A DNA stretch of 45,534 bases, taken from the IMG/VR virus record IMGVR_UViG_3300020058_000046, one strand, 5' to 3'. Source of the stretch: a virus. A program made the position numbers and the translations under genes. Below, in pieces: positions 5,081 through 45,534 of this stretch. The notes beneath the pieces are model-generated. The model had not been told where the DNA came from and made no database searches. It worked only from the letters and a program-made list of their open reading frames with translations. The first letter of the stretch is position 1. Each line of letters opens with the position of its first letter.

Positions 5081-5151
5081 CGGTCGACCGTGTCTGCACA
5101 GTCGTCTTTGTCGGTGCGAACGACGGGTGTGTAAGTAACTGTCGCCGTAAT

Positions 5152-8439: not shown

Positions 8440-9228
8440 TCAGTTGTCGCCCGACGGTTCAATAGTCACGTCGACCGACTGAATCCAATACCGAACGTTC
8501 TTGCGAACTATCGTCGTGTTGTGTTGTCGTTCGATTTTGTTGTCGTCGTCGCCGACTGCCGGCAGGTTCGATTGCCACATTGCGGTGTCGTACGACCCGC
8601 GACTTGTACTGTTCAGTTTCGACCGGGCACGTTCGACGATGTCGCCGGCACGACCCGGCACGACCGTCACGGTCACCGGCACGTCGATACGGGCACGGCG
8701 TTCGGTTCGGTCGGTCGACACCTGCACGTCTTCGACGTGTCGTTCGTCTTGCGGCGGTGACTGTGCGTCGTCGTAACTGTATTTGTCGACCGTGTGTTCG
8801 GTTGCGTCGTCGACGACTTCGTCGATGTCGTACGCCGTCGCATAGTTGCCTGCAAGACACCGGAACGTGACAGTCGCGTCGACCTTGTCGACCGACGCGT
8901 CAGGGTACGCAACCCATTCGGTCGTTCCGATTCGACCCGACGATTCCGACGTGTGTACGGCACCGCCGACGCCGATGTATCGGTCGGCTTCGGCGTCGGT
9001 GCCGATTACCCACCCGGACAGTCGACGGGCACGCGAATCGAACGGGTCTGACGGTCGCACCGGGTCGTTCAGTCGTTTCGTCGTCACGTCGTCGTCTGAA
9101 TAACTTGAATCGTACCCGACGACGATGAAATCGCAGTCAGGGATTACCGTACGTTTTTCGTGCCGCGTCAGTCTGTCGACCGGCACCTTAGTCAATTCGT
9201 CGCCGTCGGCGTCGGTGTGTCGCACCAT
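8440..9228 (-). CDS. MVRH-cassette gene of unknown function, 262 aa, embedded in the structural operon
   Basis: Starts ATGGTGCGACACACCGACGCCGAC at 9228, behind its own conserved promoter. The ORF-track start at 9276 just translates the promoter. Confidence 0.75.
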   Translation of the reverse strand: MVRHTDADGDELTKVPVDRLTRHEKRTVIPDCDFIVVGYDSSYSDDDVTTKRLNDPVRPSDPFDSRARRLSGWVIGTDAEADRYIGVGGAVHTSESSGRIGTTEWVAYPDASVDKVDATVTFRCLAGNYATAYDIDEVVDDATEHTVDKYSYDDAQSPPQDERHVEDVQVSTDRTERRARIDVPVTVTVVPGRAGDIVERARSKLNSTSRGSYDTAMWQSNLPAVGDDDNKIERQHNTTIVRKNVRYWIQSVDVTIEPSGDN

Positions 9229-9290
9229 TGCAGTCGACACTAATAGACGGGTGCATAAATAAGTGTCGTCTTGCACCGGCGGGTCGGCAC
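9229..9290 (-). promoter_or_regulatory. Conserved promoter cassette, sub-type I
   Basis: Minus strand reads GGTGCAAGACGACAC-TTATTTATGCAC-CCGTCTATTAGTGTCGACTGCA-ATG. Confidence 0.75.
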
Positions 9291-12560: not shown

Positions 12561-12866
12561 TACGACCCTTCGGTCGATATGTGTGCCCCTTCAAGTATTA
12601 GTGTAATCCGACCGTTTAGCACTATCGTCGGCAGAAACGTCGCGTGAACGGTAAACGTTCAGGGGAATACCTGAACCGAACCGTTCCTTGCAGGTTTTAG
12701 AAATCCGCCGGGTGTGACGCCGGCGGTGTGTGATTGCTCACAGACGACAACGACAGTCGGTTCGTTGCGGGCGACACACCGAACAACCGACCGACCCATG
12801 TTGTCGGCGGTGTCTGACACACCGCAACCGGAACAAGGCACACCGTCAGTAAAAACGTGTCGGGTA
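12561..12866 (-). other. 306-bp structured non-coding spacer between portal and protease genes, with its own promoter-like box
   Basis: Minus strand has CCGACACGTTTTTAC at 12850-12864. Hairpins at 12657-12676 (GTTCAGG/CCTGAAC), 12705-12726 (CCGCCGG/CCGGCGG) and 12809-12823 (GGTGT-CTGAC-ACACC). Confidence 0.5.
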
Positions 12867-17333: not shown

Positions 17334-17724
17334 TGCCCCAATCGTCACCGTATCGCAGTCGGCGGGCAGGTGACAAGTTGCCTGCACCCGTCGCAGGGTC
17401 GGCGTTCGTACCGTGACAATACTTGCACCCGTCGCGGGTCGTGCAGGTGCCGACCGGCTTCAAGACGAAGTCGACCGCGTCAGGGTCACCCGAACGAAAT
17501 TCGCATTCGGGCAACGGTTGCGCGTTGTCGGCGTCGCGGTCGACGCGTTCCGTGTGGTCGTCGCCGTCGACGAACACGATTGTACCGTCGTCGTCAGTCT
17601 TCGGAACGTGCGTCGACCGACTGTTCTTACTGCGTGCCCGTACTGCGACTTCGACGCCGTCGTCGTACACGTCGGTCGATTGTGGGTCGGTACTGCCGTC
17701 GCCGTCGTCTGTTGCTTTCGACAT
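17326..17724 (-). CDS. Acidic protein of unknown function, 132 aa; first gene of the portal operon
   Basis: ATG at 17724, preceded by GGTGCGACACACCG and a TTTTAA box 38 nt upstream. Confidence 0.7.
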   Translation of the reverse strand: MSKATDDGDGSTDPQSTDVYDDGVEVAVRARSKNSRSTHVPKTDDDGTIVFVDGDDHTERVDRDADNAQPLPECEFRSGDPDAVDFVLKPVGTCTTRDGCKYCHGTNADPATGAGNLSPARRLRYGDDWGND

Positions 17725-17780
17725 CGGTGTGTCGCACCGGGTGCCCGTTCGGGCGTTCGCGTTAAAAGTCTGTCGTCGTC
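17725..17780 (-). promoter_or_regulatory. Promoter of the packaging/head operon
   Basis: Minus strand reads GACAGAC-TTTTAAC, then 27 nt, then GGTGCGACACACCG-ATG. Confidence 0.6.
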
Positions 17781-17808
17781 AGTCTAAAGATTGAATCTTC
17801 GCCCGGTC

Positions 17809-17956
17809 GACCCTGTCTGCACAGTCGGCGTCACAGTCGCCGTCAGAAACGGCACAGTCGGTCGTGTGACCGTCGCAGTCGTACGTGCCGTATGGGTCGA
17901 ATCAGGAAAAGAACCGTCGCGTGCCGTACGCCGTCGACCCTGACGACCCTGCCGCG
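17809..17956. repeat. Phased-repeat boundary element, copy 2
   Basis: Begins at the TGA of 17957..18526. Nearly identical to copies 3 and 4. Contains TTCTTTTCC (minus strand) and 4 copies of GACTG[TC]G. Confidence 0.9.
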
Positions 17957-19094: not shown

Positions 19095-19160
19095 GGTCGT
19101 GTGTCGCCCGCCGGCGACGGTGGTACTTCGGCAGGGGTTGGTAAAAACGCGTCGGTGGTT
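19095..19160 (-). promoter_or_regulatory. Promoter-like box
   Basis: Minus strand has CCGACGCG-TTTTTAC about 48 nt before the ATG, with GGCGACACACGACC immediately before the ATG. Confidence 0.45.
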
Positions 19161-19206: not shown

Positions 19207-19842
19207 TCAGGGTGCGAAGTCGGTGACCGTCACGATTCGCCGTCGCGGGTTTCGGTTGCGCGTGAACCGTTCGTCGTGTTTCTTGTGGTGGTCGTACCTG
19301 TCGGGCACGTATTGGTCGATGAATCGGAACGCACCTTGTTTCGTCTGAAAGACGACTTCGACCGTGCCGTTGTTCACGTCGAAGTCGGCGTACGACACCG
19401 TGTCGACGTATGCGTTGTTGTCGGCACGCATATCGTCGATACAGTCACCCGCAACGGCGTCGACCACAATGACACCACGCAGGTAATCGACGATGTCGAC
19501 GACTGCACGGTTCGACAGGCACGCGTCGACGAACGCCGGCATACCCATGATATGCACGACGATATCAAGGTCGTCGGATATGGTCGACACGACACGACCG
19601 ATTTTGATTCCGTCGGTCGTCAGACAGTCGTTGTCGGTCACCCACCCGTGTTCGACCAACCGTGCCTTGCGGTCGGTGTCGACGGTTCCGGCTTCGCCGT
19701 CGACGTACCGGGCGACTGCCCGCAAGTCCTTGCGCGTTCGGTTCGTGCCCGCGTCGTCGTCGGCAAGTGCCTGCACCGCGTCGGCAAGGCTTAACGTCTG
19801 TTCGTCGGTTCGGTCGTCGTCGGCGTCGGTGTGTCGCACCAT
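19207..19842 (-). CDS. MVRH-cassette gene of unknown function, 211 aa
   Basis: ATG at 19842. The first ~30 aa (MVRHTDADDDRTDEQT..DAVQAL.DDD) are shared with 29017..29232; the rest is unrelated. Confidence 0.75.
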   Translation of the reverse strand: MVRHTDADDDRTDEQTLSLADAVQALADDDAGTNRTRKDLRAVARYVDGEAGTVDTDRKARLVEHGWVTDNDCLTTDGIKIGRVVSTISDDLDIVVHIMGMPAFVDACLSNRAVVDIVDYLRGVIVVDAVAGDCIDDMRADNNAYVDTVSYADFDVNNGTVEVVFQTKQGAFRFIDQYVPDRYDHHKKHDERFTRNRNPRRRIVTVTDFAP

Positions 19843-19900
19843 TGCAGTCGTCACTAATAGACGGGTGTATAAATATGTGTCGTCTTGCACCGCCAGTATG
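19843..19900 (-). promoter_or_regulatory. Conserved promoter cassette, sub-type I
   Basis: Minus strand reads GGTGCAAGACGACAC-ATATTTATACAC-CCGTCTATTAGTGACGACTGCA-ATG. Confidence 0.75.
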
Positions 19901-23852: not shown

Positions 23853-23987
23853 TTACCACCGACCCGACGCGACTTCGTTGCCCTTGTCGAATAGCACTTG
23901 CGCGACTTCGGCGTCGTCGGCGTCGGTGTCTTCGATTAGTTGTTCAAGTTCCGATTCGAAGTCGCCCGCCGGCGATTCCGTCGTCAT
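23853..23987 (-). CDS. Small acidic protein, 44 aa (MTTESPAGDFESELEQLIED...), below the ORF-track cutoff
   Basis: ATGA overlap with 23984..24346. Shares the MTTES start and about 37 nt of junction sequence with 28658..29020. TAA at 23853, 1 nt before the next ATG. Confidence 0.5.
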   Translation of the reverse strand: MTTESPAGDFESELEQLIEDTDADDAEVAQVLFDKGNEVASGRW

Positions 23988-24346
23988 TGCGAACCACCGT
24001 CGTCACGCGGGTCGGTCGGCAGTCGCACGTCGTCGGCGTCGATTCGCAGTCGCGTACCGCCGTTGTGTCTGTCTTCGACTGTCACCGGCGGGAAATACGC
24101 GTCGTACATACCGGCGACTGCCGCGTCGATGTCCGACGCCGACCACGATTCGGGCAATTCGACCACCGCGTCGCCGGCGATAGCAATGAATTCGTCGATG
24201 TCCTTGCCGTGTACGTTGCGGTCGAACCACCGTTGCGCGTGTGCAAGCCAATATCGGGCATGGTCACCCGCGTCGGTGTCTTCGCCGGCGGTTCCGAACC
24301 GTTCGTACCGACCTTGTCGTTCGTCGGTTGTGGTGTGTCGCACCAT
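23984..24346 (-). CDS. MVRH-cassette gene, 120 aa, ending in the DPRDDGGSQ linker
   Basis: ATG at 24346 behind the conserved promoter. The C-terminal ...DPRDDGGSQ* is identical to that of 29017..29232. Confidence 0.75.
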   Translation of the reverse strand: MVRHTTTDERQGRYERFGTAGEDTDAGDHARYWLAHAQRWFDRNVHGKDIDEFIAIAGDAVVELPESWSASDIDAAVAGMYDAYFPPVTVEDRHNGGTRLRIDADDVRLPTDPRDDGGSQ

Positions 24347-24400
24347 ACCCCTACTTGCATACCCGTGTATAAATATGTGTCGTCTTGCACCGGCAAAAGG
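24347..24400 (-). promoter_or_regulatory. Conserved promoter cassette, sub-type II
   Basis: Minus strand reads GGTGCAAGACGACAC-ATATTTATACAC-GGGTATGCAAGTAGGGGT-ATGGTGCGACACACC. The TATA is at 24368-24375. Confidence 0.8.
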
Positions 24401-24828: not shown

Positions 24829-25081
24829 TCGAACCACCCGACAGGAATTCCGACACGTCGTCAGGGTGTGGCAGTACCCTCTTGCCGTCGGTCGTCTGTA
24901 CCACGACGCCGGCGACTGTTTCGCCGTCGTGCCGACTGTCGTTGTGTTCGTGTATCACGTCGGCAGATTCCGACCAATCGACCACCTTGTGCGTACCGCA
25001 TTGCGGGCACGCAACAGGTACGTGGTCCGGTGTGTCGTCGGCGTCGGCGGTACTGTCGTCGGCAGGTGTGTCGCCGGTCAT
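24821..25081 (-). CDS. Small acidic Cys-containing protein, 86 aa, ending in the GGSNE linker
   Basis: ATG at 25081 with a TTTTAA box 28 nt upstream. Contains CPQCG. The C-terminal EFLSGGSNE* parallels ECLPGGSNE* of 28658..29020. Confidence 0.7.
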   Translation of the reverse strand: MTGDTPADDSTADADDTPDHVPVACPQCGTHKVVDWSESADVIHEHNDSRHDGETVAGVVVQTTDGKRVLPHPDDVSEFLSGGSNE

Positions 25082-25125
25082 GCCTGCCGGTGACGACGTA
25101 CGCGGTGGTTAAAACCGTGTCGGCG
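25082..25125 (-). promoter_or_regulatory. Promoter
   Basis: Minus strand has CCGACACGG-TTTTAAC, then about 27 nt, then ATG. GACTTTTCTGTTC (T-tract) lies just upstream, after the 25159 stop. Confidence 0.6.
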
Positions 25126-25158: not shown

Positions 25159-25947
25159 TCAGTCGTCGATTCGACCGTCGTGGTCGACCGTCACGTCGAA
25201 GTCGGAATCGACCGTGCGTTCGACGCCGGCTTCGATTCGGTCTTGCACGGTGTCGACGCGGTCGTCGGTGACGCCGTCGACGGTCACCGTGAACGTGTGA
25301 CCGGCAGGGAATTCGACGCGTGCCGTCTTGCCGATTTCTTGATTCCGTCGACCCTGCGTTTCGACGGTGCGTTCGTGAACCGCCGTCACTTCGACGTGCC
25401 TGTCGCGTCGACTGTCGTACCCACGAATCCGGTCACCATTCCATTCGACCGATACGTCTTGCAGGGTCATGGTTTTCAGATTGCCCGAACGGTTCGAACG
25501 GTACTGCACCGTCACGTCGACGCCGTCTTGCACGGCACCGTCGACGGGTGCCCGCCGACCCATGACCACGCAGGTTAGGTCGACCGCGTCGGCGACTTGC
25601 CTGAATTCGTAATCGTCACCCTGCCGGTACAGATTGCCGGCGTCGGTGTACGCGTACTTCGTGCCGTCGACGTACCAACTGTAAACGCCGACGCCGTCGT
25701 CGGTGTCGACCTTGTCGGCGTCGCGGGTCGACTTCGTCGGCGTAACTGCCCGAACCGTCTTGCGCGTGTCGCGTCGGGTCGTGTACGTGAATTCGATTGC
25801 CTTGCGGTTGTGGTCACAGTCGACGACATCGTCAGACACGGTAAGACCCGTGAATCGGTCGTGAAATAGGTCGTCGGCTTCGATGTCGACCGTTCGTTCG
25901 TGGTATTCGTCGGCGATTCGGTCGTCGGTTGCGGTGTGTCGCACCAT
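25159..25947 (-). CDS. MVRH-cassette gene of unknown function, 262 aa
   Basis: ATG at 25947 (MVRHTATDDRIADEY...). The ORF-track N-terminal extension translates the promoter and the upstream repeat. Confidence 0.75.
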   Translation of the reverse strand: MVRHTATDDRIADEYHERTVDIEADDLFHDRFTGLTVSDDVVDCDHNRKAIEFTYTTRRDTRKTVRAVTPTKSTRDADKVDTDDGVGVYSWYVDGTKYAYTDAGNLYRQGDDYEFRQVADAVDLTCVVMGRRAPVDGAVQDGVDVTVQYRSNRSGNLKTMTLQDVSVEWNGDRIRGYDSRRDRHVEVTAVHERTVETQGRRNQEIGKTARVEFPAGHTFTVTVDGVTDDRVDTVQDRIEAGVERTVDSDFDVTVDHDGRIDD

Positions 25948-26002
25948 ACCCCTACTTGCATACCCGTGTATAAATACGTGTCGTCTTGCACCGGCGGGCA
26001 AG
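25948..26002 (-). promoter_or_regulatory. Conserved promoter cassette, sub-type II
   Basis: Minus strand reads GGTGCAAGACGACAC-GTATTTATACAC-GGGTATGCAAGTAGGGGT-ATG. Confidence 0.8.
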
Positions 26003-26350: not shown

Positions 26351-26799
26351 TGCGAACCACCGTCGGCGTCGTCGTCGTCGTCGTCGTCGCGTCGTTCGGG
26401 CACTTCGACGTACAGTCGAACGCAACCGGCACCGTCACGGAATCGAACCGTTCGGTCGGTCGATTCGTCGGCGTACCCGGCAAGCCTGACAAGTGACATC
26501 GGCGTCGCGTGTGGGTCGTCTTGCCCGAACGAATCGTATTCGACTTTCACTTCGTCGGCACGGTCGAAGTCTATCATAGACAACACGTCGAAGCCGACCG
26601 CGTCGGCACACAGTTTTGCGGCAAGACCGACCGGCGTTAGAACCTTCGACGATTCCGGGTCGTGGTCGTCGGCGTCGTATTCGGCTTCGACCGCGTCGAC
26701 GACCGCGTCGAACGCGTCAGACGACGGGTCGTCGGCGTACGCAGTCGCAGTCTGTTCCGGCGTCGGTTCGGCGTCGTCGGCGTCGGTGTGTCGCACCAT
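26347..26799 (-). CDS. MVRH-cassette gene, 150 aa, ending in the ...DGGSQ linker
   Basis: ATG at 26799 (MVRHTDADDAEPTPEQ...). The C-terminus is DDDDDDDADGGSQ*. Confidence 0.75.
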   Translation of the reverse strand: MVRHTDADDAEPTPEQTATAYADDPSSDAFDAVVDAVEAEYDADDHDPESSKVLTPVGLAAKLCADAVGFDVLSMIDFDRADEVKVEYDSFGQDDPHATPMSLVRLAGYADESTDRTVRFRDGAGCVRLYVEVPERRDDDDDDDADGGSQ

Positions 26800-26842
26800 A
26801 CCCGTACTTGCATACCCGTGTATAAGTATCTGTCGGTGGTTT
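26800..26842 (-). promoter_or_regulatory. Conserved promoter cassette, sub-type II, with the upstream half replaced by the long repeat
   Basis: Minus strand reads CCGACAGAT-ACTTATACAC-GGGTATGCAAGTACGGGT-ATG. Confidence 0.7.
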
Positions 26843-27089
26843 ACTATCAGGTACAGTACCGATACAGTCATATACGCAGTTTCGATTCTAAGCCGTCTTA
26901 GCGGTCGCACAGTCGGCTTCAATTTTCGCCGACCCATACCACCTATTCTTTTTTCAAACGGATTCGGCAAGTTCGGACCCTGTACTTACTGATATCGGGC
27001 GTTTCGGCAAAATACACGGGTATTTAAAGGCACCCGCCGATATCACCCTGTATCATAATACCGAAACAAAACGCGTCGGTTCCGGTGTC
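26843..27089. repeat. Long intergenic repeat, copy B (paralog of 5152..5400)
   Basis: See copy A. Contains GCGTTTTGTTT, CCTTTAAATACCC, and a conserved stem GTCGG-N12-CCGAC whose loop differs between the copies. Confidence 0.85.
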
Positions 27090-27237
27090 GACCCTGTCTG
27101 CACAGTCGGCGTCACAGTCGCCGTCAGAAACGGCACAGTCGGTCGTGTGACCGTCGCAGTCGTACGTGCCCGATTGGTCGCAGTCACAGACGAACCGTCG
27201 CGTGCCGTACACCGTCGACCCTGACGACCCTGCCGCG
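27090..27237. repeat. Phased-repeat boundary element, copy 3
   Basis: Begins at the TGA of 27238..28041. Minus strand has GACTGCGAC-N15-GACTGCGAC-N12-GACTGTGCC-N12-GACTGTGAC-N3-GACTGTGCA. Confidence 0.9.
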
Positions 27238-28041
27238 TCAGTCGCCGTCGTCTTCGTCGCCGTCTTCGTCGGTCGGTGGTTCGGTCACCTGTACGTGCGT
27301 GATATCGACTTCGGTGACACCGTCGTCGTCGACCGTCACGTCGTGGTCACCGTCGACATTCACGTCGACACCGTCTGATATCTTCTTGTACGTGTCTATC
27401 AGGTTCGCAAGGTGGCTTTCCTTGCGTTCGATTGCCTTGTCACCGAACGATACGAACCGTTCACCCGTCGGTTCGAAGTCGCCCGAACGTACGTCGCACG
27501 GCGTCGGGTTACCGTCAGACATATCGAAGCCGGTGCAGACTTCGGGCAACGGTGACGATTCCGACGCCGTGTACGTGTTGCCACACTTCGGGCAACTGTA
27601 CTTGTCGACCCGTTCGGCTTCGGGTATCTTGTCGACTGCCCGAACCAACCGGGTGAATTCCCACCCGATTGATTGCTTTAGCATATCTGCCATGTCGTCG
27701 ACCGACAGTAAGTCGCCGTCGTCTGTCTGCACGACCGCGTCGAAGACTTCGGCGTCGTCGTCGTTCATTCGTTCGGAATACAACAGGTGTCGGGCGTTTT
27801 GGTTTTGCCACCCTTCTAAGCCACCGACGCCGTGCCCGTTGTGTTTCCTGCAATGCCCGGTCGTACGGTCGGTGCCCCAACCTGCGGCTTGCAGACAAAA
27901 CGCGTAATCCCACCGTTTGTTTCCGTTCACGTCTGTCGCGTCTGTCTTTTCACGACCGCATATCGGATATCCGTTTTCCGGGTGTATCGGTACGCCGTCG
28001 TCGTTCGTCGGTGCGTCAGGGTGTACGTTCGACCATGCCAT
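27238..28041 (-). CDS. HGGxSTG-like Zn-binding protein; possible small terminase subunit, 267 aa
   Basis: ATG at 28041. The N-terminus CGREK..x..CLQAAGWGTDRTTGHCRKHNGHGVGG..WQNQNARHLLYS resembles the C..C..GRC..HGG...G..GN.NA.KHG.YS block seen in some phage TerS-annotated proteins. Middle CPKCG. Acidic tail. Confidence 0.35.
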   Translation of the reverse strand: MAWSNVHPDAPTNDDGVPIHPENGYPICGREKTDATDVNGNKRWDYAFCLQAAGWGTDRTTGHCRKHNGHGVGGLEGWQNQNARHLLYSERMNDDDAEVFDAVVQTDDGDLLSVDDMADMLKQSIGWEFTRLVRAVDKIPEAERVDKYSCPKCGNTYTASESSPLPEVCTGFDMSDGNPTPCDVRSGDFEPTGERFVSFGDKAIERKESHLANLIDTYKKISDGVDVNVDGDHDVTVDDDGVTEVDITHVQVTEPPTDEDGDEDDGD

Positions 28042-28665: not shown

Positions 28666-29020
28666 TCGAACCACCCGGCAGGCATTCAGACGTGTCGTCG
28701 ACCGCGTCGGCGACGGTTCGGCGAATGGTCGACAGGTACGGCGTCTTCGTGAATATCGCAACGGCGTCGAACCTGTCCGACAGACGGTCGACTGCGTACT
28801 GCCGGTCGTCGACTGCCCATGCAAGTGCCGGGTACACGGCACGCGACAAGTCGTCGGCGTCGAATAGGTCGGTCGACGCGTCGAACGCGACTGCGACGAA
28901 TCGGCAGTCGTCACGAAGCCGCGACTGCACGATGTCTTGCGTTTCCTGCCCGAATGCCGACCACACGGTTTCGTCGTCGGCGTCGCGGATTGCGTCGGCA
29001 AGGTCCGATTCCGTCGTCAT
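28658..29020 (-). CDS. Acidic protein, 120 aa, with an MTTES start and a GGSNE end
   Basis: ATGA overlap at 29017-29020. Both termini lie in conserved linker sequences. Confidence 0.7.
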   Translation of the reverse strand: MTTESDLADAIRDADDETVWSAFGQETQDIVQSRLRDDCRFVAVAFDASTDLFDADDLSRAVYPALAWAVDDRQYAVDRLSDRFDAVAIFTKTPYLSTIRRTVADAVDDTSECLPGGSNE

Positions 29021-29232
29021 TGCGAACCACCGTCGTCACGCGGGTCGTCGAAGCCGTCGACGTACGTGACTGCAAGGTCGATAATCTGGTTCGGGTCGTC
29101 GATTGAACCGACTTCGTCGACGATGAATTCGGGCACGTCGTCGTCGCCGGTTAGTGCCTGCATTGCGTCGAACGCGTGTGCTTTCGTCTGTTCGTCGGTT
29201 CCGTCGTCGTCGGCGTCGGTGTGTCGCACCAT
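29017..29232 (-). CDS. MVRH-cassette gene, 71 aa, ending in DPRDDGGSQ
   Basis: ATG at 29232 behind the conserved promoter. Confidence 0.75.
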   Translation of the reverse strand: MVRHTDADDDGTDEQTKAHAFDAMQALTGDDDVPEFIVDEVGSIDDPNQIIDLAVTYVDGFDDPRDDGGSQ

Positions 29233-29285
29233 ACCCGTACTTGCATACCCGTGTATAAAAATGTGTCGTCTTGTACCGGCAGGTG
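29233..29285 (-). promoter_or_regulatory. Conserved promoter cassette, sub-type II
   Basis: Minus strand reads GGTACAAGACGACAC-ATTTTTATACAC-GGGTATGCAAGTACGGGT-ATG. Confidence 0.8.
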
Positions 29286-30033: not shown

Positions 30034-33000
30034 TCAGTCGTCAGGGTCGACCGCGTCTTCAACCGTCACGGCTTCGATTCGCGTAATCGTGCGTGGTTCG
30101 TCGAAGTCGGCACCGTGCAGTTGCGGTCGGTATGCGTTCACCTGTCTGTCGTCGGTGTCGCCGGTGGTTCCGACGCGTGTTTCTGTCCATTCGACCGATA
30201 CCATGCAGTCGTCACGAAGCCATCGGAACGACGCCGTGTGTGCCGTCTTCGTTCCGTACTTGTGGTCGGTCGTCGACCGTGCGTGTCGTCTGAATTCGGC
30301 GGTGACCGTGCCTGCGACGGTTCGCAGGTGGTACGCGTCGCCGGATTCGACTGTGACCGTCGTGTCTTCGTTCACGGGTATGTCGACCGATACGTACGGC
30401 GTCGCGGCAGGGTCGACCACGGTGTCGAAGTCGCCGTCGTCGCCGTCGTCGCCGGCACCCTGCCCGCCGTCGGTTCGAACCGCGTGCAGGGTTGCGTCGA
30501 ACGATATGACTGCAAGCCACCCGTCGGTGTCGACGACGGACAGTCGACCGCCGGCATTCCATACTAACTGCTTGCCGTCGGCGTCGGCAAGTTTCACGAT
30601 GTTAGATAGTTCCGTGCCGTCGACCGTCTTGATGTCCGTGTCGGTCACCGTTCCGGCGATTCGACCTTTGCCGTCGTCGCCGGCAATCGGTTCGGCTTGC
30701 ACGACCACGTTGTCACCGCGTTCAAGGTCGTGTGCGTCGACTTCGGTGTCGTCGTCGGTATCCTGCCCGCCGTCGGTTCGAATCCTGCCGTCGCCGGCGT
30801 CACAGTCGTCGTCAGACGCGTCAGACGTGCCGTCAGGGTCGTCGTCGGTGTCGTCGGTGGTTTCGTCACCGTCGTCGACGCGGTCGACGTGCCGTGCAGA
30901 CACGACGATAGACGTGCCGTCGTACGCGACGTGCCCGTCACCGTCGCGGGTCGTGGTCGCAGTCAGTTGTGACCCGTCGACTTCGTCGACCGTTGCCTGC
31001 CCGCCGTCGACGAAGGTGCCCGAATGTTCGTCGGGCACGAACACGGTGTCGCCGGCGGTGATATCGTGGTCGTAATTGTACTTCGGGTCGTCGAAGTCGA
31101 CGCCGGCGTCGGTTAGTTCGTCGACGACCGCGTCTGACGACCGGATTTCAGGCACCGCGAAGTCGCGGTCGTCACCGGCTTCGAACGCGACGAATTCGAT
31201 ATCGCCGATGTACGTGTGATTCCCTGCCGACGACACCGAATGTATCTGTCCGGTCGTAAACTTGTCATTGCCGAACCGGAACGACCCGTCGTGGTCGTCG
31301 GTTTCGAAGACGATTCGGTGCAATTCGCCGTGTGCGTGATTGTACGTCACGTTCGTCACCGTGCCCGACTTCGTCAGGGTCGACGACGAACGGTTCGAAT
31401 CGTACGCGACGAACACCCTGTCGCCGATTGCGATATCGCCGGCGTCGAAGGGCACTTCTTGATACGTACCCAATGACTGCAAGCCGGAACCTGACGTGCC
31501 GGCGGTGACGTGACTGTCGTACGATTCGGCGGTTTCGTACGCGACTGCACCGGGTCGGTCGTCGTTGTAGACTTCGCCCGACGATTCCTGCACGTACCAC
31601 CTGTCGTCGTCGGTTGCGGTGAACCGAACGACACCGTCGGACACCTTCGTCACCGTGCCCGCGACGACGGTGTCGTCGTGATTGCAGTCTTTGCCCGTGA
31701 CGACGATACTGTCGCCGGCTTCGAACCTGCCGTCGAATGCGTCACAGTCGTCGTCAGACGCGTCAGACGCGTCGTCAGGGTCGTCGTCGGCGTCGTGCCC
31801 GCCGTCGGTCACCGGGTCGGCACGTTCGACAGTCAGGTGCCGGTCGTCTGATTCCTGCACGGCGTCGACACCGTCGAAGTGTCGTAACATTGCGTCGCCC
31901 GCGTCGACCGCCGTGTCGTCGCCGGTGAATGACATCGACAATTCGTGTAACTGAACGCCGACGACGCGTTCGTCGGCAGGGTCGACCGCGAAGTGTCCGT
32001 ACCGGGCACCACCTTTCACCGTTCGCAAGTCGACCGCGTCAGTCAGGGTCGACAATGCCGACTGCACTTCGTCGACGACGCCGTACTGTTCGGCGACGAT
32101 TTTGTCAGGTTCGAACCACCCGGCAAGACCCGTTCCGAAGTCGAACGTGGTTCGGTCACCGGAACGGTCGGCGACGAATCTGATTTTGTGCCGGTCGGCG
32201 TCATTCATCGGTTTGTCGACTGCGACTTCGAACGGGTCGGCGTCTTCGTCGCGGGCAGACAAGACACGACGGCACGTTTCCGTCGCCGTGTCTGCCACCG
32301 GAACGAAGACACCGGATTCGACGGATTCGACGAAGTCGTCGATAGTGTCTGCCGAACCGTTGTCGTACCGAACGACCGTGTCGAACGACGCGTCGTCGAC
32401 GGTTTCGACGGTGTAAACCTTGTCGTTGTGAACGCCGACGAACGTGTCGCCCGGCGACGGCATATCGGCGTTGTCGGCGTCGTCGGTGCCGTCGTCGACG
32501 ATGTCGATGTCGTCGACACGACCCAACTGCGTATTGTGTTTGCGTGACGGACCCGTCGACTTGTGCAGAAACACGGGCACGGTGTCGCCGTCGGCACGAA
32601 CGTACCGCGTCGAACCGTCGTAATCGGCGTCGGGTGCCGTCGCGTTCGTTTGCAGTCGGATTCGGGCAGGGGCACCGTCGTCGTCGGTCGTCGTCACGGC
32701 TTCGGTGACCCACACGTCGACCGTCGTGGTTTCGTCGTATTCGTCTTTGTAGTGACGCGACTTGTGTGCGTACGTCACTTCGATTCGGTCACCGGCTTCA
32801 AGACCCTGCACGATGTCGAACGCGTCGGCAAACGGCAGGTGGTCGGTCGTCGATTCGTCGGCGTCGTCGGCGGGCACAAGTTCGATTACGTCGGCGTCTT
32901 TCAGTCTGTACGACAGCGTGCCGTGTGGTTCCGGGTCGACCCATGTGGTGCGACCCGACGCCGAATCGTCTGTCGTCACGCGGTACACGTCTGTCGTGCC

Positions 33001-33195
33001 CGGTATCGGGTCGTGTCGCCGTCTGAACTTGTCTAACGTGTCGGCGTCTGTGTGCCACCGTTTGCCTTGCCGCAAGACGATTAGCGATTCGTCTTCGGGC
33101 AGGTTCGGCAGGATTGCCGCGACGGTTAGGGCAGTACGATACGACAGGGGCACACCGACGCGTAAGTTGTTCCAATCTGTCGGTTTCCGTGTCAT
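30034..33195 (-). CDS. Giant acidic protein with repeated small beta-barrel-like modules, 1053 aa, unknown function
   Basis: ATG at 33195 (ATGA overlap). At least 7 copies of [FL][ED]AGD.[IV].V...G.V..V. Three (R/V)TDGG(Q/H) Asp-rich linkers, two of which follow the SDASDDDCDA segment. No P-loop seen. Confidence 0.8.
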   Translation of the reverse strand: MTRKPTDWNNLRVGVPLSYRTALTVAAILPNLPEDESLIVLRQGKRWHTDADTLDKFRRRHDPIPGTTDVYRVTTDDSASGRTTWVDPEPHGTLSYRLKDADVIELVPADDADESTTDHLPFADAFDIVQGLEAGDRIEVTYAHKSRHYKDEYDETTTVDVWVTEAVTTTDDDGAPARIRLQTNATAPDADYDGSTRYVRADGDTVPVFLHKSTGPSRKHNTQLGRVDDIDIVDDGTDDADNADMPSPGDTFVGVHNDKVYTVETVDDASFDTVVRYDNGSADTIDDFVESVESGVFVPVADTATETCRRVLSARDEDADPFEVAVDKPMNDADRHKIRFVADRSGDRTTFDFGTGLAGWFEPDKIVAEQYGVVDEVQSALSTLTDAVDLRTVKGGARYGHFAVDPADERVVGVQLHELSMSFTGDDTAVDAGDAMLRHFDGVDAVQESDDRHLTVERADPVTDGGHDADDDPDDASDASDDDCDAFDGRFEAGDSIVVTGKDCNHDDTVVAGTVTKVSDGVVRFTATDDDRWYVQESSGEVYNDDRPGAVAYETAESYDSHVTAGTSGSGLQSLGTYQEVPFDAGDIAIGDRVFVAYDSNRSSSTLTKSGTVTNVTYNHAHGELHRIVFETDDHDGSFRFGNDKFTTGQIHSVSSAGNHTYIGDIEFVAFEAGDDRDFAVPEIRSSDAVVDELTDAGVDFDDPKYNYDHDITAGDTVFVPDEHSGTFVDGGQATVDEVDGSQLTATTTRDGDGHVAYDGTSIVVSARHVDRVDDGDETTDDTDDDPDGTSDASDDDCDAGDGRIRTDGGQDTDDDTEVDAHDLERGDNVVVQAEPIAGDDGKGRIAGTVTDTDIKTVDGTELSNIVKLADADGKQLVWNAGGRLSVVDTDGWLAVISFDATLHAVRTDGGQGAGDDGDDGDFDTVVDPAATPYVSVDIPVNEDTTVTVESGDAYHLRTVAGTVTAEFRRHARSTTDHKYGTKTAHTASFRWLRDDCMVSVEWTETRVGTTGDTDDRQVNAYRPQLHGADFDEPRTITRIEAVTVEDAVDPDD

Positions 33196-35175: not shown

Positions 35176-36339
35176 TCAGTTGTCGTCGGTGTCGTTTTGG
35201 TCGTGATACGCCGGCACGACGCCGGTTGCGTCGTCGACGATTGCGTCGATTAGGTCGTCTGTGTCCGGTGTCGCACCGGCGTCGACTTCGTCGCGGTTCG
35301 ACGCAATCACCTTCAAAGCGTTGTAATTCAGTACGCCGTCGACTGCCGCGTCGAACGACTGTCGACGAACCTGTCGGTCGATGTCGTCACGACCGAATTG
35401 CACGGTTAACCCTGACACGTCGCCGTGCCCGTCGTCGTCGGCGACTGTGACCGTCGCGGTGTCGAAGTCGGTGCCGTCGACCGCGTCGTCTGTGCCGGCG
35501 TCAGGGTCGTCAGACGCGTCGTCACCGCCGTCGCCGTCGTCGGTGGTATCGTCGCCGGTGTCGCCGTCGAAGTCAGACAAGGCTTTGTGTGCCTTTGCAG
35601 TCGCGTCGTCGTCTGATATCGGTTCACCACGGTCGACGATATCAAGCCGACCCGTCTTCGCAAAGTCGACTGCCCATTGCGGGCAGTCAGGGTCGTCGGG
35701 CGTTGCCCGCGTTCCGGTCGTGAACACGCACCGCGTCAGGTAACTGTACCCGATAATCGCCGGTCGGTTTTCACCTGCACCGTGTGGGTGAATTATCCAT
35801 ACACGGGTACGCAACGGTTCGATTACCGGCGGTTGTTGTTTCGACGACACGGGAATTCGAAGGTTCAAGCCGCGTTCACGGCATTCGTCGATGTAATCTT
35901 CGGGCGTTTCCCAATTGCTCTTACCCACGGACATCAATAGGTCGATTGCCCGCGTCGACGTGATATCGCCGAAGTGTGACCCGTCGAAGCCGAACCGCGA
36001 CAGTCGGTCGATATGGTTGGGAATGTCGTCAGACGGTGTCGTCGTACCACCGTCGGCAATGTAGTGCAGACTGAACGCGTTGCCCGGAAACGGTCGGTAT
36101 CCGGGTATAATCGCACCTTTGCCGGTGTATTCCTTGTATTCGACCGGGTCGTCTAATTCGACGAATCGTGGTATGTCGCCGTCAGGTGCCGAAAGTGCAG
36201 ACACGTCACACCTGACGTAAGCCGCGTTCGGTTTCAAGTGCCCGCAACCGCGTTCTTTGTTGTCGATTGTTTCGCGTTCGTCGTCGGGTATGCCTTTTTC
36301 TAACTGTTCGTCGACGGCTTGCCGCAAGGGGTTGGTCAT
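35176..36339 (-). CDS. Unknown replication-module protein with a C-terminal HeH/SAP-like motif, 387 aa
   Basis: ATG at 36339 behind a TTTTATAC box. N-terminal ERGCGHLKPNAAY motif. Asp-rich linker. C-terminal YNALKVIASNRDEVDAGATPDTDDLIDAIV. Confidence 0.75.
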   Translation of the reverse strand: MTNPLRQAVDEQLEKGIPDDERETIDNKERGCGHLKPNAAYVRCDVSALSAPDGDIPRFVELDDPVEYKEYTGKGAIIPGYRPFPGNAFSLHYIADGGTTTPSDDIPNHIDRLSRFGFDGSHFGDITSTRAIDLLMSVGKSNWETPEDYIDECRERGLNLRIPVSSKQQPPVIEPLRTRVWIIHPHGAGENRPAIIGYSYLTRCVFTTGTRATPDDPDCPQWAVDFAKTGRLDIVDRGEPISDDDATAKAHKALSDFDGDTGDDTTDDGDGGDDASDDPDAGTDDAVDGTDFDTATVTVADDDGHGDVSGLTVQFGRDDIDRQVRRQSFDAAVDGVLNYNALKVIASNRDEVDAGATPDTDDLIDAIVDDATGVVPAYHDQNDTDDN

Positions 36340-36392
36340 GGGTCGGTCACCACGGTCGACGATTGTTTCGGCGGGTATAAAACCGTGTCGGT
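36340..36392 (-). promoter_or_regulatory. Promoter of the PCNA operon
   Basis: Minus strand has CCGACACGG-TTTTATAC, then about 36 nt, then ATG, with GGTGACCGACCC before the ATG. Confidence 0.6.
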
Positions 36393-36465
36393 GATTGGGT
36401 GAATGGTGGGCCGGACATTGCCACCGGCAGGTGTGACCCGCGTGTGTCGGTCGGTGTCTGTCGAT

Positions 36466-36607
36466 GTCTGCACAGTCGGCGTCACAGTCGTCGTCAGAAA
36501 CGGCACAGTCGGTCGTGACGCCGTCGCAGTCGTACGTGCCGTATGGGTCGAATCAGGAAAAGAAACGTCGCGTACCGTACGCCGTCAGTCGTGACGACCC
36601 TGCCGCG
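36466..36607. repeat. Phased-repeat boundary element, copy 4
   Basis: Begins at the TGA of 36608..38305. Near-identical to copy 2. Confidence 0.9.
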
Positions 36608-38305
36608 TCAGTCGTCGGTGTACTTGTCGTGCAGGGTCGTGAATGACCCGTTTCGGGAATCACGGCACCCACACGGGCACCGCAAGGTTAGTTCGCGGTC
36701 GGTCGTCGTGTTGTATCGACTGATTTTGTAGGTGTGAACGCGAAGGGTCGGTCGAAGTCGGTCACCACACCACGGGCACACCGCAAGTTCGTGCAAGACT
36801 TCGGTGCCCTTGTCGGTGATATCCCACCGGGCATTAGGGTCGTCGAAGTCGGCGTCGTCATTGCCGTCGACGCGTTCAATCAAGCCGACTTCGCGTGCCT
36901 TGCGAATGACCGTTCGAAAGTGTGCGTCGCCGTGTGCGAAGCCGTCGGGTCGACGGAAACCCGTGCCCGGTGACCCATGACCCTGCACCTTGCGAACACC
37001 TTGCTTACCCGTCGGGCACGGTGCGATATCGTCAGGGTCGACATCGTCGTCGTACGTGTTCACGGTGAACATACCGCCGTCGCCCGACGCGTCTTCGCGT
37101 GCCGACGCAATGAATTCCTGCCACCACGCGACATCGGTAAGCAACGACCGAACCTTCGTCGGCGTCACCGACGCGTATTCGTCGAACACGTCGGCGACAT
37201 CGTCGGGCACGTCGGCGTCGTCGACGGACCACACGCGGTCGTCTTTGCAGTCGATACACACCGGGTCGTCGTGTGCCGGGTGGTCGTGTTCGGCACCGGC
37301 GTCGTGCGTGTCACCGCAACGGGCACAGTCGAACGTGTCGATGTACCTGTCGGCGGTCTTTTTGCCGTCGTCGTTGTACTGTGCCTTGTTGTAAGCCGCG
37401 TCGCGGATTCGTTCGACGTTTCGGTTCACGGACAGTCGGCGAAACGTCTGTGCGACTTCGGTTCGGTTGTTGTCCGACGCGTCGACAAGGTCGGAATACG
37501 AAGCCGCGTCGAATTCGTCGTCGAAGTCGTGTGGTATCGTCGCACGATACCACAAGGGTCGTTCGTAATCAGGGTCGTCGTATGACGGCAAGCCGTCGTC
37601 GACATCGTCGCCCGCCGTGCCTGCACGCAATGCGATAGTTGCGTCGAAGGGGCAGTCGCCGTCGTCGCCGTCGCAGGTGTATCGCAGTCGAATGATTCCG
37701 TCGTCGTCGACACGGGTGCGTTCGCGGTTCCGGTGACCGTCGTGAACCGGGCACGTCGGCGGTGCGTGTGACAACGATTCACCGTCGGCGTCGTCGGAAT
37801 ACTGTTCGACGACCTTGTGAACGACGGTGCCGTCTTCGACGACCGTTCGAATCGACCCGTCGTGCCGAATCTTGATGTCGTACTGTTCCGGTTCGGCGTC
37901 GCGCAAGAAGTGTTCCGTGTCGGCGTCGGAGTGTGCGTCGACTTTGGCTTCGACCGGGTCGGTGTCACCGCCGTCGGTCACCGCGTCGGCGACTGCCGTT
38001 TCGAACGCGTCGACGGTGTCGCCGAATCCGCGTTCGGCGTCGGTCGGTTCGCGGTCGTCGGCGTTCAGGTGGTCGTCGGCGTCGGCGGTGTCGTCGCGGT
38101 CGACGCCGTACGGATTGCGCGACTTTAGTTCGGCGATTGCGACTTCGGCGTTCGCGGTAAGGACAGGTTCGGCGTATTCGCCGTCGGGCAGGTTCGCGGC
38201 AGTCTGTGCGACGCGGTCGATGTACTGAATCAGTTGGTCGGTCGACATCGTCGTCGGGTCGATGTCGGCGGGCGATTCGTCGTCGGCGTCGGTGTGTCGC
38301 ACCAT
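36608..38305 (-). CDS. MVRH-cassette gene: large Zn-finger / winged-helix-like protein, 565 aa, candidate replication or regulatory factor
   Basis: ATG at 38305 (an in-frame ATG also sits 6 nt upstream). Cys clusters CARCG..CIDC and CPWCG..CPCGC. FRTVIRKAREVGLIERV resembles a wHTH recognition helix. Confidence 0.75.
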   Translation of the reverse strand: MVRHTDADDESPADIDPTTMSTDQLIQYIDRVAQTAANLPDGEYAEPVLTANAEVAIAELKSRNPYGVDRDDTADADDHLNADDREPTDAERGFGDTVDAFETAVADAVTDGGDTDPVEAKVDAHSDADTEHFLRDAEPEQYDIKIRHDGSIRTVVEDGTVVHKVVEQYSDDADGESLSHAPPTCPVHDGHRNRERTRVDDDGIIRLRYTCDGDDGDCPFDATIALRAGTAGDDVDDGLPSYDDPDYERPLWYRATIPHDFDDEFDAASYSDLVDASDNNRTEVAQTFRRLSVNRNVERIRDAAYNKAQYNDDGKKTADRYIDTFDCARCGDTHDAGAEHDHPAHDDPVCIDCKDDRVWSVDDADVPDDVADVFDEYASVTPTKVRSLLTDVAWWQEFIASAREDASGDGGMFTVNTYDDDVDPDDIAPCPTGKQGVRKVQGHGSPGTGFRRPDGFAHGDAHFRTVIRKAREVGLIERVDGNDDADFDDPNARWDITDKGTEVLHELAVCPWCGDRLRPTLRVHTYKISRYNTTTDRELTLRCPCGCRDSRNGSFTTLHDKYTDD

Positions 38306-38355
38306 ACCCATACTTGCGTACCCGTGTATAAAAATGTGTCGGCTTGTACCGGGCA
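38306..38355 (-). promoter_or_regulatory. Conserved promoter cassette, sub-type II
   Basis: Minus strand reads GGTACAAGCCGACAC-ATTTTTATACAC-GGGTACGCAAGTATGGGT-ATG. Confidence 0.8.
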
Positions 38356-38365
38356 GTCGGTGAAT

Positions 38366-38405
38366 GCCGACACGTTTTTACCTGCCGTCGGCGTACCCTG
38401 CACCG
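38366..38405 (+). promoter_or_regulatory. Divergent promoter of the plus-strand TFB-like operon
   Basis: Plus strand has GCCGACACG-TTTTTAC (38375-38380), then 26 nt, then ATG(38406). Confidence 0.6.
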
Positions 38406-39407
38406 ATGTCAGGTGCAAAAACCGACCCGCCGACCCTTCGCCGTCTTGCCGATTCCGTCGGCTTCGACGACGGTGATATCGACTTCGCCGAACAGTTAGA
38501 CGACCAACTGCCGAACGACGGTGGTTTCGCCGACCGTGACGCCGGTATCGTGTACGCCGTCGCGCGTATCAATAACGTGCCGATTCGACCCGGCGAAGTC
38601 GCCGACGCGTCGCAGTACGACGATGTCGACGCCGATACTGTCGTGAACGACACGCGACGTATCGCCGACACTATGCCCTTCGACTTACACGTCGACGACC
38701 CGTCGGCGTTCGTAAAACGATTCGTCGACGACGTATCCGATGTCTGCCGGGTGCCCGACGGTTTCCGGCAGACTGCCCTTCGTCTGTGTGCCGACGCAAC
38801 GAACGCCGGCTTGCAGTCAGGTAAGTCGCGTTCCGGTTTTGCCGCGTCGGTCGTGTACGCGGCTTCGGTCGTCACCGACGCCGATATCGGGCAATACGAA
38901 GTCGCCGACATCGTCGACGTGTCACCCGTAACAATCCGAAACCAGTACCGACCGATTATCGACTGCACCGACGAACACGATTGGACAATGCACGACGCCG
39001 ACGACTTGCCCGAACTTGTCGACGCAATCGCCGACGACATCGACCGCGTACCTGACGACGTGCGTGACGACGCGGTCGGCGTCGCCGAATCAGTCGTCGC
39101 CGACGAACCGGAATTCGTCACGTCGACGAAGGTGACCGGAACCGCCGGCGGTGTCTTCTATGTCGTTGCTGAACGACACCGTTTCGACGTTTCCATGCAA
39201 GAAGTCGCCGATACCGCCGGCGTCAGTAAGCATACAGTCGTTGCCCGTGTTCACGACGTGCGTGATTACTGCCGTCGCGTTCAGTACCGAACGATGAATT
39301 ACAACCGTCTGAAAGAACTTGCCGCGTCGCACGACCTTGATGTCGGCACGACGCCGGCGAAGTCAGACATCGTCGACGCGTTAGTTCGCAACAAAATCGA
39401 CGCATAA
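38406..39407 (+). CDS. TFB/TFIIB-like protein (two cyclin repeats, no Zn-ribbon or B-reader) with an extra HTH and a C-terminal HeH/SAP-like motif, 333 aa
   Basis: LQSGKSRSGFAASVVYAASVVTDADIGQYEVADIVDVSPVTIRNQYRPI matches the TFB second-repeat signature (sGrsP..lAAAalY.As......tQ.evA....VtevTIRNrY.e). The first repeat has RDAGIVYAVARINNVPIRPGEVA. There are no Cys pairs at the N-terminus. An ATG at 38364 is an alternative start. Confidence 0.7.
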   Translation: MSGAKTDPPTLRRLADSVGFDDGDIDFAEQLDDQLPNDGGFADRDAGIVYAVARINNVPIRPGEVADASQYDDVDADTVVNDTRRIADTMPFDLHVDDPSAFVKRFVDDVSDVCRVPDGFRQTALRLCADATNAGLQSGKSRSGFAASVVYAASVVTDADIGQYEVADIVDVSPVTIRNQYRPIIDCTDEHDWTMHDADDLPELVDAIADDIDRVPDDVRDDAVGVAESVVADEPEFVTSTKVTGTAGGVFYVVAERHRFDVSMQEVADTAGVSKHTVVARVHDVRDYCRRVQYRTMNYNRLKELAASHDLDVGTTPAKSDIVDALVRNKIDA

Positions 39408-45531: not shown

Positions 45532-45534
45532 TGC
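45436..45534. repeat. Second copy of the terminal 99-bp overlap
   Basis: Identical to 1-99. Confidence 0.95.

Follow-up and report, generated by a model that had tools for sequence, protein, structure and literature searches.

A conserved 5' box on haloviral mRNAs and a candidate antisense RNA encoded between the portal and protease genes

Haloarchaeal mRNAs are for the most part leaderless, and their post-transcriptional regulation is poorly understood; to our knowledge, gene regulation in archaeal tailed viruses is almost unexplored. Here we analyze a promoter/5'-end cassette that recurs before unrelated genes, whose proteins begin with MVRHT, in a viral DNA of 45,534 nucleotides (nt), IMG/VR record IMGVR_UViG_3300020058_000046; this whole stretch is called the window below. 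In bacteria, the c4 RNA of phages P1 and P7 and the CI RNA of P4 are reportedly small phage RNAs that pair in trans, through recognition sequences in their loops, with short targets in phage mRNA. Regulator and target are said to co-vary between phages, and each RNA is said to act on one operon (ant, or P4 alpha), upstream of a ribosome-binding site or on termination. In mycobacteriophages, the start-associated sequences of Cluster K reportedly contain the ribosome-binding site and are located upstream of the start codon, and the stoperators of Cluster A are said to be repressor-binding DNA sites spread across operons. The morons of tailed phages, a term attributed to Hendrix and colleagues, reportedly carry unrelated promoters.

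Two archaeal viruses also offer comparisons. HF2 contains intergenic repeats of classes I and II that consist of a B recognition element (BRE), a TATA box and a gamma motif lying across the mapped start site and needed for activity (Russ, Pfeiffer and Dyall-Smith 2021, PMC8707807). A passage of the same article describes Tant of phiH1, an archaeal-virus antisense RNA that pairs with the 5' part of the lytic transcript T1 and inactivates it (PMC8707807). For the window, we propose with a probability of roughly 0.6 that the cassettes are promoter and address-label modules, and that one viral non-coding RNA pairs with the 5' box shared by about ten mRNAs. The proposal comes from sequence comparison and draws on the conservation of the box, its fixed distance from the TATA box, complementarity, covariation and predicted hairpins. 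Whether a single small RNA controls a set of leaderless mRNAs through a universal 5' label, which would be the first description of a multi-target riboregulator acting in trans in an archaeal virus, we regard as an even bet.

The 15-mer ATGGTGCGACACACC is present exactly seven times in the window, always on the minus strand, at the ATGs at 9228, 19842, 24346, 25947, 26799, 29232 and 38305, and an earlier note on this DNA had placed all seven correctly. Even with 2 mismatches allowed, the chance expectation is 0.34, and 8 matches were reached in 0 of 100 shuffles. Each copy lies 21-25 nt downstream of a TATA box within a cassette that runs from an upstream box, GGT(G/A)CAAG(A/C)CGACAC, through (A/T)TATTTATACAC and an 18- or 22-nt spacer to the 15-mer. 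The 15-mer is followed by GACGCCGAC in five copies and by GACGCCGACGAC in four, and the 24346 and 25947 copies diverge past ACACC; this layout, the two spacer subtypes and the continuations are as the earlier note had described them. The shorter versions that it listed are also real, with an exact 13-mer core at 17724 and 3 mismatches at 19094. One detail needed amendment: the upstream box of the 26799 copy is indeed replaced by a long repeat (26818-27180 versus 5127-5488, 87% identity), but CCGACAG still precedes its TATA box. This duplicated segment of 366 nt also encodes similar short N-termini, MGRRK(F/L)KPTVRPLRR....

The cassette set consists of 7 full copies and 1 non-coding copy, 55-80 nt long and 83-96% identical, and identity between the 19842 and 29232 copies remains at 80% across 160 nt. 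The seven cassette-led proteins, of 71-565 amino acids (aa), are unrelated past their first codons, and no Pfam or PHROG family was found for any of them. The non-coding arrangement at 17724 is orthologous in three related loci, L021, L309 and L310 (relatives are numbered with an L throughout). In outline, these results bear out the view that the copies are promoter/5'-end modules of one co-regulated gene set.

The constraint falls on the nucleotides. Across the window and 14 related loci, the exact 13-mer GGTGCGACACACC has 29 non-redundant copies, variants with 1-2 mismatches are almost absent, and the MVRHT codons show no synonymous variant. The 13-mer stands untranslated, at the usual distance from a TATA box, at window position 17740 and at the orthologous place L021:5655, the window copy being out of frame with the ATG at 17724. 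After the ATGs at 5038 and 25081, the word CGACACACC is read in another frame (D-T-P). The same word has a strand bias of 14:2, and for 10 of the 14 copies on the minus strand a predicted start is no more than 20 nt away. MVRHT thus shows neither the free synonymous change nor the constant translation of a peptide tag, and the peptide is probably a by-product of a nucleotide label, one of two options offered in the earlier note, which had also placed the conservation at the nucleotide level. A 5' hairpin within the mRNA itself (GGUG-N5-CACC) was rejected as the main explanation; it reaches only -3 kcal/mol (z = -1.75) and is lost in longer contexts.

We found that other IMG/VR halovirus contigs carry the exact 15-mer several times per genome, at an equal distance from the TATA box and with other spacer sequences. 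The loci that bear the box are syntenic relatives at 40-75% aa identity (capsid 68%, terminase 70%, portal 63%, TFB-like protein 40-42%), and for 6 of the 8 window copies, orthologues with 33-65% identity carry the same box, so the similarity does not reflect only recent whole-gene duplication. The identity of promoter and spacer is 70-75% within genomes versus 37-42% between them (70% versus 40-42% for the spacer), and this holds for orthologous cassettes too. An identical 15-mer before genes this divergent argues that it is kept by purifying selection and not by recent gene conversion or duplication. Lineage-specific spacers beside an invariant 15-mer point to two processes: the promoter part evolves in concert, and the 15-mer is under strong purifying selection. 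The idea that gene conversion or cassette recombination maintains uniformity therefore stands for the promoter and spacer and fails for the 15-mer.

The portal and protease genes are separated by a 306-nt non-coding gap (12561-12866) that opens with a CGACAC-TATA promoter, and the sense strand of the gap contains UCGGUGUGUCGC, a 12-nt perfect complement of the cassette 5' end that the earlier note had not noticed. Most simply read, the gap would code for a non-coding RNA, or at least for a sense-strand RNA segment within late transcripts; no Rfam match was found in it. Whole gap RNAs, taken from the predicted start to the first T-run, were more stable than shuffled sequences in 5 of the 6 genomes folded (z -2.3 to -4.6), as were the isolated hairpins in 5 of 7 (z -2.6 to -4.3). 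In these predicted folds, six of whole gap RNAs and seven of hairpin segments, a long hairpin carries the antisense element at its apex, on a stem that varies in sequence from virus to virus. We ranked targets by counts of contiguous seeds in place of whole-sequence RNAduplex energies, which did not discriminate because GC-rich sequences give spurious long duplexes.

Two further observations concern the gap. At 12789-12800 (minus strand) the predicted RNA has CAUGGGUCGGUC, a 12-nt perfect complement to positions -9..+3, including the AUG, of a 387-aa gene that starts at 36339 (36337-36348, minus strand); this gene has a CGACAC-TATA promoter and a short leader, and may be an additional target. 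In addition, CGACAC occurs both at the BRE position 5' of the TATA box and as the core of the 5' box, at +7..+12, so that the antisense loop is complementary to the untranscribed upstream box as well. On a MAFFT alignment of the gaps, RNAalifold paired this promoter box with the antisense element and missed stems of variable length, and its consensus was set aside.

To compare viruses, we gathered relatives independently of the box, through their protease, capsid and portal proteins. The corresponding gap of L005 contains the 13-mer in inverted form. In 6 of the first 7 genomes, the longest perfect complement to the virus's own box, locus-wide, fell in the portal-protease gap; these complements measured 12, 13, 14, 10, 17 and 11 nt and were reached by 0-3 of 2000 shuffles. 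In the seventh genome, L173, the complement is present as 9 + 4 base pairs (bp) with a one-base bulge. The pattern was repeated in L304, L306, L307, L309, L310 and L311, while L308 has the antisense loop and no box within its 14-kb locus.

Box and loop also change together. Grouped by lineage, box variants carry …ACGCC, …AAGCAC or AGGUG…. In L174, the box GCGACACGCC pairs with GGCGUGUCGC; here the variant GGTGCGACACGCC and the gap sequence GACAUACGGCGUGUCGC form a 17-nt complement that includes both the variant and the target ATG. In L172 and L173, the box UGGUGCGAAGC / ATGGTGCGAAGCACTACC (MVRSTT) is matched by GCUUCGCACCA, and in L311, AGGUGCGACAC is matched by GUGUCGCACCU. Differences between copies within one genome lie just outside the paired footprint. 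A more distant case is L294 (IMGVR_UViG_3300000575_000016), in which five cassettes of a second class, at 270, 4072, 4688, 5460 and 6165, start with ATGGC.CAAAAGACCCAA (MAQKTQ) and are all invariant in AAAGACCCAA; its gap has a perfect 10-bp hairpin with the loop UUCGGGUCUUU. Taken alone, this box-loop match is weaker (8 nt, reached by 87 of 2000 shuffles). A standard start on five genes of L294 suggests that shared first codons are general in this virus group and that the labels are lineage-specific.

The gap contains a second block, UCGGUGUCGCUUCCC, whose pairing partner is the leader of an ASCH-domain gene at -18..-4. This pairing comprises 15 Watson-Crick pairs in L306, and in L310 and L304 one of the 15 pairs is G·U; L309 has G-C at that place, and L294 has 13 of 14 pairs with double compensatory changes. 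The 15-bp cases were reached in 0-1 of 500 random-window controls. In the window, the ASCH leader (19099-19111) pairs with the loop of hairpin 2, over 13 nt. Positions of the cassettes and gap features are collected in Table 1.

Table 1. Location of the cassettes, the predicted gap RNA and associated features in the window
Feature	Position	Strand	Description
Cassette 29232	29218..29277	-	Upstream box GGTACAAGACGACAC, TATA TTTTTATAC, 18-nt spacer, 5' box ATGGTGCGACACACC at 29218-29232; heads 71-aa open reading frame (ORF) 29017-29232
Cassette 9228	9214..9277	-	22-nt spacer including CCCGTCTATTAG; heads 262-aa ORF within structural module, slot between g9306 and g7547
Cassette 19842	19828..19891	-	22-nt spacer; heads 211-aa ORF; L021 orthologue also cassette-led
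Cassette 24346	24332..24391	-	Heads 120-aa ORF (MVRHTTTDE); L026 orthologue also cassette-led
Cassette 25947	25933..25992	-	Heads 262-aa ORF (MVRHTATDD); orthologues in L007 and L026 also cassette-led
Cassette 26799	26785..26836	-	Lacks GGTGCAAG upstream box, keeps CCGACAG before TATA; heads 150-aa ORF; L026 orthologue also cassette-led
Cassette 38305	38291..38350	-	Heads 565-aa Cys-rich ORF; L030 orthologue also cassette-led; divergent from TFB-like gene
Non-coding module	17722..17775	-	Promoter CGACAG-ACTTTTAAC, then exact 13-mer GGTGCGACACACC at usual TATA distance, in ~16-nt leader of ATG 17724, out of frame
ASCH-domain gene promoter and leader (ATG 19094)	19099..19155	-	Leader segment GCGGGCGACACAC at 19099-19111; 13-nt perfect complement of gap-RNA loop
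Degenerate module	25065..25123	-	Promoter CCGACACGGTTTTAAC, start ATGACCGGCGACACACC; word in another frame (D-T-P); 11-nt complement to gap-RNA loop
Predicted gap-RNA promoter CCCGACACGTTTTTAC	12849..12864	-	Right after portal stop codon; in all relatives C(C/G)G(A/G)CACG(C)TTTT(A/C)C
Predicted ~130-nt non-coding gap RNA	12700..12828	-	5' hairpin, long hairpin 2, GC hairpin then AUUUC; minimum free energy -64 kcal/mol, z = -4.6
Hairpin 2 of predicted gap RNA	12746..12805	-	-29.2 kcal/mol, z = -3.4; antisense element at tip
Antisense element UCGGUGUGUCGCCCGC	12767..12782	-	10-13 nt perfect complement to 5' ends of seven cassette mRNAs, 17724 and 19094 leaders, 25081 start
Second antisense segment GUUGCGGUGUGUC	12816..12828	-	5' end of predicted gap RNA; specific to 25947 copy (GACACACCGCAAC), whose divergent continuation is GCAACC
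TFB/TFIIB-like protein	38406..39407 (annotated ORF from 38364)	+	Pfam TFIIB 2e-15; PDB 1ais_B 4e-16; cyclin-fold core only, lacking zinc ribbon and B-reader

Counted from the A of the ATG, copies with an 18-nt spacer have TTTATA at -27..-22 and CGACAC at -37..-31. The haloarchaeal standard, from HF2 and Haloferax, is a TATA box from -26 and a BRE at -33..-37 (PMC8707807), and the cassettes would fit it if transcription starts at the ATG, as predicted. By their TATA distance, the cassette mRNAs are predicted to be leaderless and the two 22-nt-spacer copies to have a leader of ~5 nt. Internal genes of operons have a GGTGA-type Shine-Dalgarno sequence 5-8 nt ahead of the ATG. The CGACA(C/G)-TATA signature occurs at ~14 promoters of the genome, including that of the TFB-like gene, which is divergent from the 38305 cassette, has its own promoter CCGACACGTTTTTAC and is 40-42% conserved in L020 and L030. 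We infer a link between the TFB-like protein and the cassette; the protein could recognise the CGACAC box in the BRE position or, alternatively, act as a decoy for the host's TFB. Examples of CGACAC-TATA promoters are found at 5062-5076, 12849-12864, 25108-25123, 36375-36391 and, on the plus strand, 38367-38381.

In the mechanism that we propose, the cassette would act as a transcription and 'address' module, with CGACAC at the BRE position and a TATA box starting at about -27. Transcription would start at the A of the ATG, or ~5 nt earlier in the 9228 and 19842 copies, and would yield a leaderless or near-leaderless mRNA whose first 15 nt would be AUGGUGCGACACACC. A discrete virus-encoded RNA from the gap (12700-12828, minus strand) would show UCGGUGUGUCGCCCGC at the tip of a stable hairpin and would pair in vivo with the first 10-17 nt of about ten viral mRNAs, namely those of the seven cassettes and the 17724, 19094 and 25081 transcripts. 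Pairing would then be expected to block the loading of ribosomes on leaderless mRNAs, mark them for decay, or both, and one RNA could switch the whole set; we infer the direction of this control, its repressive sign and its timing. A gene landing behind a cassette would gain both a promoter and an address label. On this model, the 5' label stays constant because a single regulator has to remain complementary to many targets, and it can change only when that regulator changes too. Furthermore, since two or three target words have inverted copies in one region of ~150 nt, one RNA is a simpler account than several DNA-binding proteins.

Several other readings of the same data have to be weighed, one being that the 13-mer is a DNA operator at +3..+15, at which a dimeric regulator of the virus or host gates recruitment of RNA polymerase, with the gap copies serving as operators of a late promoter. 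The near-dyad symmetry of the 13-mer (5 of 6 pairs, reached by 1% of window 13-mers) fits such a regulator, as do the CGACAC word on both sides of the TATA box and the position of the element over the transcription start, the classical place for an archaeal repressor (review PMC5569661); the virus also encodes a TFB-core-like protein and several small zinc-ribbon proteins. A bound protein would not, however, readily account for the register of the inverted copy, which shifts between viruses (+1..+14, +2..+14, +5..+17, +6..+15, +2..+12) and is interrupted by the bulge of L173, nor for complements that reach into gene-specific flanks (17 nt including the ATG in L174, trailing ...CCUA in L304). 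The variant box of L172 is no longer palindromic, the second module has a G·U state, and the ~ten targets all share one orientation while inverted copies occur only in the gap, always at hairpin tips on stems that are not conserved in sequence. Two or three words would moreover need two or three proteins, each with a site in the same 150 nt. With a co-varying antisense partner in the portal-protease gap, we consider the operator proposed in the earlier note unlikely, and less likely than RNA pairing. We give similarly low odds to the opposite polarity, in which the gap would be the long leader of the protease-capsid operon and the cassette transcripts would act on it, their pairing opening or closing hairpin 2 and so governing read-through or translation for the late structural genes. 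The gap does immediately precede the protease/major-capsid operon, the T-run that resembles a terminator is weak, and 8-10 transcripts with the same box would make an abundant effector. Against this, the stretch from the antisense module to the protease ATG contains a second promoter-like element as well as a conserved GTAGGGTCG leader. In L173 (~7940-8120) and L307 (~2015-2420), an ORF for an HNH endonuclease parts the module from the protease gene, so that the module is separable from the protease leader and contiguity is needless. The second block, which targets a single-copy leader, that of the ASCH gene, also looks like a regulator facing its target.

It is doubtful to a greater degree that the cassette is simply a copied promoter, initiator and initially transcribed sequence, homogenised by recombination, and that the complementarity of the gap is incidental. 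HF2 has repeated promoter cassettes with a start-site motif whose mutation abolished promoter activity (PMC8707807), and in our viruses the promoter and spacer parts do evolve in concert, two copies sharing 12 nt with the HF2 gamma motif. Concerted evolution within a genome cannot, however, give 15-mer identity across genomes with differing spacers, and an incidental complement would neither recur at the same locus in every gap-bearing relative nor track the variants of the box. Still harder to sustain is a conserved sequence that serves mainly as a recombination handle for the exchange of accessory genes, with expression signals secondary. Among relatives the same slots hold different payloads and the same payload is found in different slots; orthologues of m9228 occur elsewhere lacking the box and align to m9228 from residue 8; and a cassette splits the 1053-aa ORF in three relatives. 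Yet sixteen invariant bases fall short of what homologous recombination needs, the element has no linked recombinase, and 6 of 8 copies are stably tied to orthologous genes, while the non-coding and antisense copies would go unexplained. We see next to no prospect for a functional N-terminal tag, MVRHT with a D/E-rich stretch, acting in targeting, stability or packaging. Seven proteins do start with MVRHT, and many relatives encode MVRHT plus an acidic stretch, but about 30 copies show no synonymous variation, the 17724 and L021 copies of the 13-mer go untranslated, the word falls in another frame at 5038 and 25081, and other lineages use MVRSTT, MARHT and MAQKTQ.

Some results weigh against RNA pairing as well. 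The promoter, ends and existence of the gap RNA are predictions, and the T-run at its proposed terminator is weak, with 3 T's. The co-varying inverted words could in principle be paired protein-binding sites, and the 5 of 6 dyad pairs of the 13-mer, with the CGACAC repeat upstream of the TATA box, would suit a DNA-binding regulator. In the lineage of the window, the loop pairs only with +6..+17, and +1..+5 are equally invariant, which implies another constraint too, such as the start codon or initiator. The antisense element is partly paired in a small apical helix of its own in minimum-energy folds, and plain duplex-energy ranking failed to separate targets from non-targets. Finally, the relatives share ancestry, and independent covariation events are few, ~4-6.

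The payloads of the structural module are exchanged. Two slots, g9306|g7547 and g6528|tail tube, hold different payloads or none among the window, L001, L003, L005 and L028. Like morons, the cassette genes of the structural module are units of promoter and gene that lie between conserved neighbours in some relatives only. Payload swapping between these slots fits the inheritance of promoter and label by captured genes. The 1053-aa ORF (30034-33195, minus strand), which has no family match, is split in L007, L020 and L032; there, its first ~116 residues are encoded by a gene of their own, after which come a cassette and a gene that matches residues ~110-230 and ~810-930. A domain that matches residues ~300-430 of the same ORF is encoded by a cassette-led gene standing alone in the structural module of L001, L003 and L005.

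Other repeats accompany the genes of the window. A second family of ~165 nt, with 88-93% identity, is found at 17806-17975, 27087-27256 and 36457-36626, with a partial copy at 5421-5488. Its copies begin where the preceding gene has its stop codon, lie a short way ahead of a CGACAC-TATA promoter, and contain a T-run, TTCTTTTCC, followed by reiterated GACTGTG/GACTGCG motifs; they may represent a terminator with a regulatory or iteron-like element, or another non-coding RNA. A 3' gene junction, GACGGTGGTTCGCAATGACGACGGAATC, is common to 23973-24033 and 29006-29067 and is also present at 24828 and 28665. The upstream proteins end with ...DGGSQ* because this junction includes both a GGTGG Shine-Dalgarno sequence and an ATGA in which stop and start overlap (next gene MTTES...), suggesting that both ends of some small genes are standardised.

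Bases 1-99 of the window are repeated exactly at 45436-45534, and this 99-bp end repeat indicates a complete genome of ~45.4 kb, circular or terminally redundant. Almost all genes are on the minus strand. The window codes for a large terminase, portal protein, prohead protease/scaffold, tail tube protein and tape-measure-like protein, and the 407-aa gene at 9595-10818, which has no Pfam match, is the putative major capsid gene by position and conservation. The terminase has its closest counterparts (~38%) in BJ1, Humcor1, HRTV-28 and HSTV-1, tailed viruses of Halorubrum and Haloarcula, and megablast of 26 kb of the window found no nucleotide-level relative among deposited phages. Together these data indicate a new haloarchaeal siphovirus-like virus.

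Distant BLAST with two cassette copies matched only GAC-rich coding sequence or chance 18-mers, and a scan of genome contigs for the 15-mer gave, among the matches listed, only chance ones in unrelated bacteria. Single-protein searches for related loci, with the TFB-like and the 565-aa proteins, gave no matches; a metagenome scan gave one uninformative match of 1.6 kb, and the matches of a 14-nt gap probe were mostly due to chance. The distant portal relatives L296-L301 (45-50% identity) are organised differently, and a simple promoter scan of them detected no cassettes. Full-text literature searches found no description of MVRHT, of the cassette or of a trans-acting small RNA in any archaeal virus.

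If the model holds, the identical first codons on unrelated proteins would be explained as a regulatory by-product, and newly captured accessory genes would be co-regulated at once. It would also answer how small RNAs act on mRNAs that have no 5' untranslated region, and would provide a compact test system whose parts are all defined by sequence, with one ~130-nt RNA, a label of 13-16 nt and about ten targets, with natural compensatory variants among relatives. The label and antisense loop are, in addition, sequence signatures with which the virus family and its regulon can be sought in metagenomes.

Among known systems, the HF2 repeats resemble the cassettes in that several near-identical intergenic copies, with a BRE, a TATA box and a motif spanning the mapped or, in the cassettes, predicted start, are kept among relatives and are thought to mark co-regulated sets. 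They differ in that the conserved block described here is the first 15 nt of predicted leaderless mRNAs, is translated, is identical across far more divergent viruses, and has a co-varying antisense partner elsewhere in the genome; none has been reported for HF2. The HF2 alpha, beta and gamma motifs showed no BLAST similarity to the cassettes. As a separate observation, CCCGTCTATTAG in the 22-nt spacers (9240-9251 and 19854-19865, minus strand) is identical over 12 nt to the core of the HF2 class I gamma motif, which holds the mapped start there, although it is out of register by 6-7 nt and closer to the TATA box here; it may be a shared host-factor or initiator-like motif, or reflect exchange of promoter modules between unrelated halovirus families.

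The words of Clusters K and A (13-14 bp) are, like the box, short, invariant, orientation-specific and located beside the starts of many unrelated genes; unlike it, they are not known to be the 5' end of a leaderless mRNA or to have an antisense RNA partner. Morons and cassette genes are alike as self-contained units of promoter and gene, with one standard promoter and 5' label serving all of them here. Tant, in the account of the passage that describes it, is cis-encoded opposite its single target, whereas the element at 12767-12782 lies on the same strand as its many targets and kilobases away from them. The likeness to c4 and CI RNA extends to complementarity near the start of translation (10-17 nt, from +1 or +6 to +14 or +17, or in the leader up to the ATG), to a recognition sequence at the apex of a predicted stem-loop, and to compensatory variation, seen in the boxes of L174, L172/L173 and L311 and in the A-U, G·U, G-C and double changes of the ASCH leader. 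What sets the gap RNA apart from c4 and CI is its set of candidate targets, about ten separate, predicted leaderless archaeal mRNAs with a common box at the 5' end that includes or adjoins the AUG.

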